Assembly (NCBI RefSeq): GCF_056746865.1
Contig: NZ_CM163382.1
DNA: 64,000 bases
Direction: 5' to 3' (one strand)
Below the pieces are notes generated by a model. It saw nothing but the letters and a program-made list of their open reading frames with translations, was not told the DNA's origin and did not search any database. The stretch's first letter is position 1. Each line of letters begins with the position of its first letter. Positions 5,327-9,066 of the stretch are shown piece by piece. The translations under genes and the position numbers were made by a program.

Positions 5327-6439
5327 ATGAGTAATATTGTTTACCTGACAGTAACGGGAGAACAACAAGGAAGCATCTCCGCAGGTTGTGGGACTTCTGA
5401 GTCTACAGGTAATCGCTGGCAGAGCGGGCATGAGGATGAAATATTTACATTCTCACTCTTAAATAGTATTACTAATACGGGGCTTGGTTCACAGTTCCAT
5501 GGTATAACATTTTGTAAATTAATTGATAAAAGCACTCCATTATTTATTAATTCCATTAACAATAATGAACAATTATTTATGGAATTTGACTTCTATCGAA
5601 TAAATAGATTTGGTAGATGGGAAAAGTATTATTATATACAACTAAGAGGCGCTTTTTTATCGGCTATTCATCATCAGATCATTGAAAATCAACTGGATAC
5701 AGAAACATTAACTGTTAGTTATGAATTTATCCTCTGTCAACATCTTATCGCAAATACCGAGTTCAGCTATTTGGCACTCCCTGAAAATTATAACTGTTTG
5801 TTTTTACCAAATTCAAAAAACCAAACAAATAATCGTTTCAAAACGTTAAACAGCAAAGCTATTGGCAGGCTACTTGCTGCTGGTGGCGTATACAATGGGA
5901 ACATTGAAGGATTCAGAGATACTGCGGAAAAACTGGGTGGAGATGCAATAAAAGGCTATGATCAAATACTAAATGAAAAAACAGCGGGCATAGCGATAGC
6001 AACAGCATCTATTCTTTTAACAAAGCGTTCTAATGTTGATACATATACAGAAATAAATAGTTACTTAGGCAAACTTAGAGGTCAACAAAAACTTCTTGAT
6101 GGTATAGACATAATAGAAATAATATACATTAAGAGACCTTCAAAAGACTTAGCTAACTTACGAAAGGAGTTTAATAAAACTGTAAGAAAAAATTTTCTTA
6201 TCAAACTTGCAAAAACCTCCGAAGCATCTGAAAGATTCAACGCCGAAGACCTTTTAAGAATGAGAAAGGGCAATGTTCCTCTAAATTATAATGTTCACCA
6301 TAAACTATCTCTAGATGATGGTGGTACTAATGATTTCGAAAATTTAGTATTAATCGAAAACGAACCATATCATAAAGTTTTTACTAACATGCAATCACGA
6401 ATAGCTAAGGGAGTATTAGTAGGTAGACTGGCCCCCTGA
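5327..6439 (+). CDS. yhhZ: Hcp-family (T6SS tube-like) protein fused to a C-terminal HNH nuclease domain; 3' end replaced by the IS2 insertion
   Basis: N-terminal Hcp-like region followed by an HNH motif (NYNVHHKLSLDDGGTNDFENLVLIENEPYHK). The reading frame runs into the IS2 left end at 6424 and terminates after 4 IS-encoded codons (RLAP). Confidence 0.8.
   Translation: MSNIVYLTVTGEQQGSISAGCGTSESTGNRWQSGHEDEIFTFSLLNSITNTGLGSQFHGITFCKLIDKSTPLFINSINNNEQLFMEFDFYRINRFGRWEKYYYIQLRGAFLSAIHHQIIENQLDTETLTVSYEFILCQHLIANTEFSYLALPENYNCLFLPNSKNQTNNRFKTLNSKAIGRLLAAGGVYNGNIEGFRDTAEKLGGDAIKGYDQILNEKTAGIAIATASILLTKRSNVDTYTEINSYLGKLRGQQKLLDGIDIIEIIYIKRPSKDLANLRKEFNKTVRKNFLIKLAKTSEASERFNAEDLLRMRKGNVPLNYNVHHKLSLDDGGTNDFENLVLIENEPYHKVFTNMQSRIAKGVLVGRLAP
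6419..6423. repeat. 5-bp target-site duplication (GTAGG), left copy
   Basis: GTAGG immediately precedes the IS2 left end and recurs at 7755..7759 immediately after the right end. Confidence 0.85.
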
Positions 6440-6514
6440 ATCTCCAGACAACCAATATCACTTAAATAAGTGATAGTCTTAATACTAGTTTTTAGACTAG
6501 TCATTGGAGAGCAG

Positions 6515-6880
6515 ATGATTGATGTCTTAGGACCGGAGAAACGCAGACGGCGTACTACACAGGAAAAGATCGCTATTGTTCAGCAGAGTTTTGAACCGGG
6601 AATGACGGTCTCCCTTGTTGCCCGGCAACACGGTGTGGCAGCCAGCCAGTTATTTCTCTGGCGCAAGCAATACCAGGAGGGAAGTCTTACTGCTGTGGCC
6701 GCAGGAGAGCAGGTCGTTCCTGCCTCTGAACTTGCTGCTGCCATGAAGCAGATTAAAGAACTCCAGCGCCTGCTCGGCAAAAAAACGATGGAAAATGAAC
6801 TCCTTAAAGAAGCCGTTGAATACGGGCGTGCAAAAAAGTGGATAGCGCACGCGCCCTTATTGCCCGGGGATGGGGAGTAA
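6515..6880 (+). CDS. insC: IS2 OrfA (InsC), HTH transposase subunit
   Basis: [53 protein letters not shown]..., 121 aa from the internal ATG of ORF 6470..6880. Confidence 0.9.
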
Positions 6881-7743
6881 GCTTAGTCAGCCGTTGTCTC
6901 CGGGTGTCGCGTGCGCAGTTGCACGTCATTCTCAGACGAACCGATGACTGGAAAGATGGTCGCCGCAGCCGTCACTCAGATGATACGGATGTGCTTCTCC
7001 GTATACACCATGTTATCGGAGAGCTGCCCACGTATGGTTATCGTCGGGTATGGGCGCTGCTTCGCAGACAGGCCGAACTTGATGGTATGCCTGCGATCAA
7101 TGCCAAACGTGTTTACCGGATCATGCGCCAGAATGCGCTGTTGCTTGAGCGAAAAACCGCTGTACCGCCATCGAAACGGGCACATACTGGCAAAGTGGCC
7201 GTGAAAGAAAGCAATCAACGATGGTGCTCTGACGGGTTCGAGTTCCGCTGTGATAACGGAGAAAAACTGCGAGTCACGTTCGCGCTGGACTGCTGTGACC
7301 GTGAGGCACTGCACTGGGCAGTCACTACGGGCGGCTTCGACAGTGAAACAGTACAGGACGTAATGCTGGGAGCGGTGGAACGCCGCTTCGGCAACGAGCT
7401 TCCGGCGTCTCCAGTAGAGTGGCTGACGGATAATGGTTCATGCTACCGGGCTAATGAAACACGGCAGTTTGCCCGGATGTTGGGGCTTGAACCGAAGAAC
7501 ACGGCGGTGCGGAGTCCGGAGAGTAACGGCATAGCAGAGAGCTTCGTGAAAACGATAAAGCGTGACTACATCAGTATCATGCCTAAACCAGACGGGTTAA
7601 CGGCAGCAAAGAACCTTGCAGAGGCGTTCGAGCATTATAACGAATGGCATCCGCATAGTGCACTGGGTTATCGCTCGCCACGGGAATATCTACGGCAGCG
7701 GGCCAGTAATGGGTTAAGTGATAACAGGTGTCTGGAAATATAG
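6838..7743 (+). CDS. insD: IS2 OrfB (InsD), DDE transposase catalytic subunit, expressed as an OrfAB fusion by -1 frameshift
   Basis: 301-aa ORF overlapping insC in the -1 frame, with an integrase-core-like sequence. Confidence 0.9.
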
Positions 7744-7754
7744 GGGCAAATCCA

Positions 7755-7759
7755 GTAGG
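7755..7759. repeat. 5-bp target-site duplication (GTAGG), right copy
   Basis: Identical to 6419..6423. Confidence 0.85.
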
Positions 7760-7841
7760 TGAAAGCAAAATCACTCCCTGGGCCATTCCATCTGGCTCAA
7801 TTTATCCTCCCATGAAAAATATTATGGAACCCACAAAATGA
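7755..7841 (+). pseudogene. yhhZ: Displaced 3' end of yhhZ (last ~26 codons, ESKITPWAIPSGSIYPPMKNIMEPTK)
   Basis: Joining 6423 to 7760 (removing IS2 and one duplication copy) restores a continuous frame that ends at the TGA at 7839..7841, giving a 392-aa product. Confidence 0.75.
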
Positions 7842-8332
7842 TGACTAAAACCCAAATAAATAAATTAAAAAAAATGATGAATGATTTAGACTATCCATTT
7901 GAAGCACCGCTCAAGGAATCATTTATTGAAAGTATAATCCAAATAGAATTTAATTCTAATTCAACTAATTGCCTGGAGAAATTATGTAATGAAGTTAGTA
8001 TTCTTTTTAATAATCAACCTGATTATCTTAATTTTTTAAGAGCAATGGATGGATTCGAAGTTAATGGATTACGATTATTTAGCCTCTCGATTCCAGAACC
8101 TTCAGTTAAAAACCTTTTTACCGTAAATGAATTTTATAGAAATAATGATGATTTCATAAACCCTGATCTACAAGAACGGTTAGTGATCGGGGATGATAGC
8201 ATTTCAATATTTACTTATGACATTAAAAGTAACTTTTTTGAAATTAGAGATAATATTGGCACCGAAAATATATTCAGTTCGTTTAGTGATTTCTCTTCAT
8301 TCTTAAACGAAATCATGGACAGTTGTTCATAA
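7838..8332 (+). CDS. yrhA: Putative immunity protein for the YhhZ nuclease (SUKH/Smi1-Knr4-like)
   Basis: 164-aa ORF whose ATG overlaps the reconstructed yhhZ stop (ATGA), indicating translational coupling; it carries an ...FLRAMDGFEVNGLRLFSL... motif reminiscent of SUKH immunity proteins. The name is assigned from position. Confidence 0.6.
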   Translation: MMTKTQINKLKKMMNDLDYPFEAPLKESFIESIIQIEFNSNSTNCLEKLCNEVSILFNNQPDYLNFLRAMDGFEVNGLRLFSLSIPEPSVKNLFTVNEFYRNNDDFINPDLQERLVIGDDSISIFTYDIKSNFFEIRDNIGTENIFSSFSDFSSFLNEIMDSCS

Positions 8333-8543
8333 TAATCAAAAGGTAACAAAAATCATTGTAAACCATGCCATCTTTTTAGAGATTACCAGCAGAAAATTCC
8401 TTGTTCGAAACTTAGCAATGCAAGCTATGGAAAAACTTACAACGGAACTACACTCCTTAAGTGAGATGGACCGAAGACATGTAATCTCTATTTTAGCCGA
8501 AATAGCTAATGGCTATGATGATTTTAGTGACATGTTGATTTAG
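8331..8543 (+). pseudogene. Start-less open frame / gene remnant (...LAMQAMEKLTTELHSLSEMDRRHVISILAEIANGYDDFSDMLI)
   Basis: About 70 sense codons are open with the first ATG only at 8418; the frame differs from yrhA and the region is AT-rich. Confidence 0.3.
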
Positions 8544-8566
8544 TTAGAACTTCACCCGAATCATAA

Positions 8567-8746
8567 GATTCTGATATCTTAAATAAGAAAATCCCGTTCG
8601 ACGTTCTGAAAAAGAAATCACAAAATATTAGCAGATACTTATTTCGTGACTGTATATTATCCGATGAACTTTTTTCAAAACCAGCATTTAATAATATATT
8701 TGACGAAGATGAACGCGTCTTTTCTCAAAGTATAACGCAAGAATAA
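8567..8746 (+). pseudogene. Start-less open frame / gene remnant (...FRDCILSDELFSKPAFNNIFDEDERVFSQSITQE)
   Basis: 59 open codons with no in-frame ATG, ending at the TAA at 8744..8746. Confidence 0.3.
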
Positions 8747-8781
8747 TAATATAACGATCAACAATAATATTTATTATAATT

Positions 8782-9066
8782 ATGATTACTTATCACGACG
8801 CATTCGCGAAAGCGAACCATTACCTTGATGATGCAGATCTCGCCGTCGTCATTACTCTACATGGACGCTTTAGCCAGGGCTGGTATTTCTGTTTCGAAGC
8901 ACGAGAATTTCTCGAAACTGGTGATGAGGCCGCGCGTTTATCCGGTAACGCACCTTTTATTATTGATAAAGACAGTGGTGAAATTCATTCCCTTGGAACG
9001 GCAAAGCCGCTGGAAGAATATCTACAGGATTATGAAATAAAAAAGGCTACCTTCGGCTTGCCCTGA
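8782..9066 (+). CDS. yrhB: Small YrhB-family protein
   Basis: 94-aa ORF (MITYHDAFAKANHYLDDADLAVVITLHGRFSQGWYFCFEAREF...) located upstream of ggt as in E. coli. Confidence 0.8.
   Translation: MITYHDAFAKANHYLDDADLAVVITLHGRFSQGWYFCFEAREFLETGDEAARLSGNAPFIIDKDSGEIHSLGTAKPLEEYLQDYEIKKATFGLP

Follow-up and report, generated by a model that had tools for sequence, protein, structure and literature searches.

The 449-nt spacer between yrhA and yrhB in Escherichia coli is very probably made up of the remains of two different genes, which once stood as separate cassettes behind the toxin gene yhhZ. Both stretches of the spacer (relic 1 and relic 2 in Table 1) carry the hallmarks of gene relics, such as homology to intact protein families, disabling lesions and, on small counts, relaxed constraint, and they are a new instance of a known by-product of toxin-module swapping. 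Presumably, neither of them now makes a functional protein. The stretches were pointed out in an earlier note on the DNA analysed here, a 64,000-nt stretch from contig NZ_CM163382.1 (hereafter, the window), in which they were read as decayed remnants of orphan cassettes downstream of a polymorphic toxin locus. This reading is borne out, since their homologues are found beside toxin domains or in CDI arrays.

The yhhZ island and the open frames of its spacer

In E. coli, the island has the gene order yhhZ – yrhA – yrhB (Imm35) – ggt, and the copy in the window sits between yhhY and ggt. The Hcp-HNH toxin, YrhA, the two relics and Imm35 follow one another on the plus strand. Hcp proteins that carry a toxin domain at their C-terminus (Hcp-ET) are described as polymorphic T6SS effectors with immunity genes downstream in passages of PMC6730261 that cite Ma et al. 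2017, and PMC5714182 includes YhhZ among the Hcp1-family polymorphic toxins, assigning it a His-Me finger. The ORF at 5327-6439 matches Pfam T6SS_HCP (E 2e-11), weakly HNH, and NCBIfam TssD (E 3e-34), and up to position 6424 yhhZ shares 100% identity with the tssD of strain 118UI, which is intact. The adjacent yrhA, which encodes 164 aa in the window, is presumed to be the cognate immunity gene of the HNH toxin. Neither fragment in the spacer matches Imm35 (Pfam PF15567), unlike yrhB.

Of 5426 complete E. coli genomes, 4090 contain the 1321 nt from yrhA to yrhB at 90-100% identity, and 3808 of the 5426 keep the spacer itself. Across that region and its toxin neighbour, RefSeq gives the labels tssD, yrhA, ‘protein YrhD’ and yrhB. 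The spacer had been described as AT-rich, and its GC content is indeed 31%; however, the whole island has 28-36% GC, and consequently the spacer is not unusual in this respect.

Table 1. Location of the genes, relics and insertion sequence at the yhhZ locus in the window, and of the alternative toxin domain in other loci.
Feature	Position	Strand	Evidence
yhhZ, 5' part (Hcp-ET1-type toxin: Hcp domain + HNH nuclease; ~codons 1-366)	5327..6424	+	cut by IS2
IS2 interrupting yhhZ	6425..7753	+	TnpA/TnpB (NCBIfam E 4e-83, 1e-213)
yhhZ, displaced 3' end (~last 27 codons + stop)	7754..7841	+	100% identity to L001 3975-4062
yrhA, intact	7838..8332	+	NCBIfam YrhA family E 2.8e-37, model positions 2-149 of 150
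Relic 1, 5'-truncated, start-less Lc82-family copy	8322..8582	+	HMM match 8334-8519, hhalign match 8337-8561
‘yrhD’ ORF, C-terminal two thirds of relic 1	8427..8543	+	RefSeq, on a sequence identical to the window: YrhD pseudogene, incomplete, missing C-terminus
Relic 2, 5' two thirds of a Cy85-family gene	8583..8746	+	HMM match 8585-8743
yrhB, intact orphan immunity gene	8782..9066	+	Pfam Imm35 (PF15567) E 4.4e-22, model positions 1-85 of 85
Alternative toxin domain, C. rodentium Hcp	L026:4526-4996		
Alternative toxin domain, Budvicia Rhs	L024:4535-4996		
Alternative toxin domain, third contig	L028:2849-3394		

Two stop-free stretches are present in the spacer just as had been noted, 8331-8543 with 70 codons followed by TAG and 8567-8746 with 59 codons followed by TAA. 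The first frame is in fact open from 8307 (8307-8543), and therefore overlaps the last 26 nt of yrhA. Both stretches had been said to have no plausible start codon. This holds for the second frame, which contains no ATG, GTG or TTG, and for the N-terminal 26-30 codons of the first, since none of these codons is in frame between 8307 and 8418; at 8418 and at 8427, however, an ATG is present in the first frame.

Openness by itself is weak evidence of coding, because runs of at least 59 codons arise in 43% of 2000 dinucleotide shuffles of the 449-nt spacer. Runs of at least 70 codons arise in 20% of the shuffles, and two plus-strand runs of at least 59 codons in 0.7%. The description of the stretches as protein-like is upheld by the HMMs of the two families presented below, which score the first and second plus-strand frames at 48.6 and 38.2 bits, respectively, while the best of 2000 shuffled peptides reach 10.8 bits with the family HMM of stretch 1 and 7.8 bits with that of stretch 2. 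Among all frames of the spacer, only these two match either HMM. The minus strand also has stop-free runs of 66 codons (8524-8724) and 58 codons (8336-8512), which neither family HMM matches; these runs most likely arose as by-products of the frames that once coded for protein.

Intact relatives of the two relics

The first stretch is related to a family of proteins of about 80 aa (Lc82), of which eight members were aligned. An 82-aa protein of Leclercia (L014:7633-7881), whose gene was found by tblastn against a set of individual loci and has a CdiA toxin and a 160-aa gene upstream of it, is 39% identical to relic 1 over 56 aa (BLASTP, E 1e-11). When relic 1 was searched by tblastn against 7.3 Gb of plasmids, the matches following those in E. 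coli were Lc82 members of Rahnella (E 4e-5) and Pantoea, and the Leclercia protein as query retrieved the Rahnella and Pantoea members again, plus copies in Ralstonia and Streptomyces. Relic 1 covers nearly the whole of the Lc82 family length, and its comparison with the Lc82 profile has an hhalign probability of 96.9% (E 1.3e-10, 73 columns).

The ATG of yrhD lies 26-30 codons downstream of the beginning of the Lc82 match (near 8334-8337), and this match extends to the C-terminus of the family. Therefore, the TAA at 8580-8582, which is the stop codon of YrhD in K-12, looks ancestral. Relic 1 has two lesions, that is, its first 26-30 homologous codons are without a start, and a premature TAG is present at 8541-8543. 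Because of this TAG, yrhD encodes only 38 aa in the window, where RefSeq places ‘protein YrhD’ at 8427-8540, compared with 51 aa in K-12-like strains; the locus and the frame are the same as in K-12, and, compared as proteins, stretch 1 and the K-12-like YrhD allele share 93% identity. The DNA similarity between the yrhA genes of E. coli and Citrobacter stops near 8321, which points to a recombination junction within the last yrhA codons. The joining to the end of yrhA would have removed the first few codons and the start of the relic 1 gene, and the remainder would be the ORF with an internal ATG that is annotated as yrhD, cut further here by the TAG.

The Leclercia Lc82 protein is modelled with four helices (pLDDT 84.8), and the annotated YrhD would be without the predicted helix 1. 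No significant match to the family was found in Pfam, NCBIfam, PADLOC or PDB sequences, and a Foldseek search of the model against the PDB returned generic helical bundles alone (E > 0.7). In the CDI arrays of Leclercia, Pantoea, Rahnella and Ralstonia, a single gene separates the Lc82 genes from the C-terminal domain of the toxin, and their upstream neighbours are mutually unrelated; the copies in Streptomyces and one Pantoea have no toxin nearby. No Lc82-like gene follows yrhA in the yrhA-bearing loci of Dryocola, two metagenome/Logan assemblies and C. koseri.

The Leclercia CdiA array comprises the 160-aa gene, the Lc82 gene, a 74-aa membrane-like ORF, Imm63 and Imm70. In the same region of Leclercia (L014 3845-5501 and 6083-10501), a YrhA homologue of 61% identity and a protein of the DUF8093 type, the latter matching Pfam HNH weakly, stand within about 2 kb of this convergent CdiA locus. 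Consequently, a YrhA-type immunity gene is also paired with a carrier protein other than Hcp, of the DUF8093 type.

For the second stretch, the relatives were reached through C. youngae, whose gene order is equal to that of E. coli (yhhW, yhhX, yhhY, Hcp-HNH and yrhA, on to ggt). Here, a gene for 85 aa (L008:5516-5773) begins 20 nt past yrhA. The protein translated from relic 2 is 45% identical to its product over 53 aa (BLASTP, E 2e-14) and matches residues 2-54 of 85; the alignment opens with MKKIPLDILEQKAKEIS... against NKKIPFDVLKKKSQNIS.... At the DNA level, 8585-8680 is 67% identical to L008 5519-5614. The profile of this family (Cy85), whose intact members of 85-88 aa are present in many Citrobacter species, in Budvicia and in other assemblies, matches relic 2 over columns 2-51 of 101 with an hhalign probability of 97.5% (E 8.7e-12). 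There was no significant match to Cy85 in Pfam, NCBIfam, PADLOC or PDB sequences, and its AlphaFold model, with a pLDDT of 48, is too poor for use.

Relic 2 has lesions at both ends. Where Citrobacter has the start ATGAAAAAA (ATGAAA), E. coli has AATAAG after TAA, and the five E. coli sequences compared at this point, which represent four sequence types, are all alike. The loss of the ATG fits a G dropped from TAAATGAAG, or two substitutions. At the other end, the frame stops at residue 54, so that the last 31 of 85 codons are missing, among them those for the block that is best conserved in the family, R-x-R-M-N-[IV]-Y-x-G-E-G-x-V-E-Y-[VI]-G-L-E-R. The start of yrhB is located 35 nt beyond the stop of relic 2. 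MAFFT pairs an internal Met codon with the ATG of yrhB, but such a continuation of relic 2 into the start of yrhB was rejected as indistinguishable from chance similarity of AT-rich sequence.

In Citrobacter, the place of yrhB beside ggt is filled by another cassette, a gene of 81-87 aa (C. youngae L008 5807-6070, C. koseri L012 2581-2826). Its matches are below threshold (EarA-like Pfam, E 0.12; Lrs14-type HTH in NCBIfam, E 0.041), and hint weakly at a helix-turn-helix fold.

Could the two stretches instead be the halves of one frameshifted gene, or belong to a yrhA that once reached further at its 3' end? Their frames share positions 8567-8582, and some database ‘proteins’ (P0006, P0011 and P0012) fuse yrhA with stretch 1 or stretch 1 with stretch 2. 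However, nearly every one of these fusions is a cluster of a single member on one short metagenomic contig, so that indel errors are suspected. The two stretches match different stand-alone families of 80-85 aa, and they meet at a stop/start junction, where stretch 1 reaches the C-terminus of its family at the TAA of 8580-8582 and stretch 2 resumes directly after it at family residue 2; a single frameshifted gene is therefore excluded. The frameshifted longer yrhA, which the earlier note had offered as its other reading, fares no better, because YrhA covers its model end to end and the yrhA of Citrobacter stops at the aligned position. Among the intact homologues listed, which end at about 164-166 aa, none runs through 8331-8543 in one frame. 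Taken as a whole, an origin from one gene is extremely unlikely.

The proposal that TBLASTN would find full-length homologues of the fragments was successful in part, i.e., by way of synteny and small databases, whereas the large protein searches returned nothing outside E. coli. The query of the large searches was a concatenated reconstruction of both stretches, which had been built on the idea of a single frameshifted gene, an idea that was dropped once each half matched a family of its own. With it, a k-mer search of 5.8 billion proteins yielded E. coli variants of the locus only, including fusion artefacts, and HMMER, run exhaustively over 1.84 billion representatives, yielded nothing beyond E. 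coli variants. The true relatives were missed because they score only about 35-48 bits, which is too low for databases of such size; they were reached via synteny, from the genes that follow yrhA in other genera. In a peptide-pattern scan of 100,044 species genomes, the sole match was one E. coli-like contig. This contig (L007, CABHOW010000200.1, 3996 nt), from a MAG named ‘uncultured Flavihumibacter sp.’, carries the spacer at 92% protein identity, and probably represents E. coli contamination or mis-binning. Neither fragment has a significant match in Pfam or NCBIfam. In addition, neither the toxin/immunity DNA of Citrobacter nor the Lc82 DNA of Leclercia had a blastn match in the 5426 E. 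coli genomes. Since neither gene turned up intact in Escherichia, whether in the large protein and genome searches or in the 5426 E. coli genomes, the time and the route of pseudogenisation can only be inferred.

Decay within E. coli

The window was aligned with four other E. coli sequences, among which two blood isolates share one allele (B2-like). Further changes in the reading frames differ from lineage to lineage. The codon at 8541-8543 is TAG in the lineage of the window, TAT in a K-12-like strain and TGG in the two blood isolates. The blood isolates have a TAA at 8493-8495, inside yrhD, and the K-12-like strain has a TAA at 8621-8623, in stretch 2. The spacer of strain EC556 contains a 9-bp duplication.

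Between lineages, the spacer diverges by 7.8%, which is near the pS of yrhA and yrhB (0.08-0.13). The pN/pS ratio amounts to about 0.9 in relic 1 and about 0.6 in relic 2 and exceeds 2 in the yrhD part of relic 1, compared with 0.16 for yrhA and 0.07-0.28 for yrhB, where these values are based on 4-16 substitutions per region in four lineages. The counts are small, but all of them lie in the same direction, i.e., relaxed constraint on both relics.

These data bear on the question of whether yrhD is a genuine small-protein gene, in which a truncated fragment of the four-helix protein has kept or gained a function while the rest is junk. RefSeq annotates ‘protein YrhD’ in most of the genomes that bear the spacer, with an open ORF of 51 codons; about 3000 of the 3808 genomes fall in the band of 95-99% identity typified by K-12-like alleles, and the 51-aa sequence is present on more than 1000 contigs. 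However, yrhD keeps neither an intact ORF nor a sign of purifying selection, since premature stops occur in the window and B2-like lineages, that is, in two of the four lineages sampled, and its differences comprise 8-9 non-synonymous changes versus 1 synonymous change. The homology to the parent family reaches 26-30 codons upstream of the ATG, into a part that has no start, and the ORF would leave out the first predicted helix. By eye, no Shine-Dalgarno-like motif was seen upstream of 8418 or 8427, and among the literature that mentions yrhD, the titles and abstracts contain nothing on a function. We therefore regard a functional small protein as unlikely. The evidence treats yrhD as the putative tail of a longer dead gene and not as a gene in its own right. 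The named K-12 gene yrhD would accordingly be reinterpreted as the tail of a dead cassette, which argues for marking it as a pseudogene in annotation, and relic 2 would be a second pseudogene, previously unannotated. With both, the spacer would be explained.

It is also conceivable that the spacer is functional non-coding DNA, such as a promoter or leader of yrhB or a small RNA, and that its open frames are incidental. A promoter is needed for yrhB, weak sigma-70-like matches are located at 8672-8700, 8722-8750 and 8758-8786, and the spacer has been retained in the 3808 genomes mentioned above. However, the number of promoter-like sites (7) is close to that in shuffles (5.7 ± 2.0), a match to Rfam is absent from the spacer, the divergence is at about the synonymous rate of the neighbouring genes, and the open frames are directly accounted for by the protein homologies. 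Non-coding function as the explanation is consequently very improbable, although a relic could also supply the yrhB promoter incidentally. A terminator scan of the spacer showed no enrichment over shuffles. A sub-threshold Rfam snoRNA match inside yrhA was dismissed as chance.

Toxin neighbours, proposed cassette replacement and insertion sequences

At the same chromosomal locus in C. rodentium, a Cy85 member of 101 aa starts 2 nt after the gene for a 402-aa Hcp protein. The N-terminal 229 aa of this protein are 69% identical to YhhZ, whereas its last 157 aa (residues about 246-402) constitute a different domain, which shares 61% identity with the C-terminal domain of an orphan Rhs in Budvicia. 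There, too, a Cy85 member is located directly 3' with a gap of 2 nt, and on a third contig the same toxin domain is again followed by a Cy85 member. The Cy85 gene thus travels with one toxin domain on both Hcp and Rhs carriers, and therefore looks like an immunity gene; judging from gene position, the family is probably the immunity gene of this alternative toxin domain, and relic 2 would accordingly be a former immunity gene.

The toxin domain contains the conserved motif W-S-S-H-V-H-P-D-G-x4-S-x-G-D, i.e., H-x-H-x7-S-x-x-D, which we take, from the motif itself, to resemble the JAMM/JAB metallopeptidase signature. It has no match in Pfam (scanned at E up to 10) or in PDB sequences. The C-terminal domain of C. 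rodentium and its 85-aa partner are without a Pfam family, and they were not matched to the named types Hcp-ET1 to ET4 as covered in PMC6730261. Tentatively, Cy85 and the toxin domain of about 155 aa might form an undescribed pair, and, separately, Lc82 might be a new four-helix class of immunity or accessory proteins in CDI arrays, with yrhD as its relic. If Cy85 and the toxin domain are such a pair, E. coli would preserve, as a fossil, the trace of an earlier time at which it faced or carried that toxin.

How the two cassettes came to lie behind yrhA may be pictured as follows. Successive replacement of toxin C-terminal domains and their immunity genes at the Hcp gene would have pushed older immunity genes downstream, where those without a matching threat decayed, while yrhA and yrhB would have stayed under selection. 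The yhhZ locus would then have exchanged toxin/immunity modules with the equivalent locus of Citrobacter and with Rhs and CDI arrays. The two uncharacterised protein families and the unclassified toxin domain are candidate modules of interbacterial competition.

Orphan immunity genes and degenerate cassettes downstream of toxin genes are well known, for example, the cdiA-CT/cdiI orphans of CDI systems, the orphan arrays of Rhs and the arrays of T6SS. As in these, the relics of E. coli lie downstream of a toxin gene whose C-terminal domain varies and are on the same strand as that gene, the homologues of relic 2 directly follow toxin C-terminal domains elsewhere, and an intact orphan, yrhB (Imm35), is present alongside the decayed ones. 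The Budvicia and Pantoea loci are themselves arrays of multiple cassettes. However, both E. coli cassettes are dead (without a start, truncated) and unaccompanied by an orphan toxin fragment, and the carrier at this locus is an Hcp fusion, unlike that of the CdiA and Rhs orphan arrays. For Hcp-ET, three duplicated copies of the cognate immunity gene are described downstream of an Hcp-ET3-4 gene in the passages of PMC6730261 on Ma et al. 2017.

The toxin gene in the window is itself interrupted by IS2, at a site about 27 codons before the end of yhhZ. The breakpoints were obtained by blastn against the uninterrupted locus L001 and are uncertain by a few bases, with the blast segments overlapping by 7 bp. 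Strain 118UI has the identical locus without IS2. Consequently, the YhhZ toxin has probably been inactivated here, while its presumed immunity gene yrhA stays intact. The yhhZ-yrhB locus seems to be eroding repeatedly. In the K-12-like strain JME64 (L003 229-1371), an IS1 is located within or just past a shortened yrhA, and in strain PKF8 (L006 2288-2985) an IS1 stands in place of yhhZ, yrhA and most of the spacer, with about 70 nt left before yrhB.
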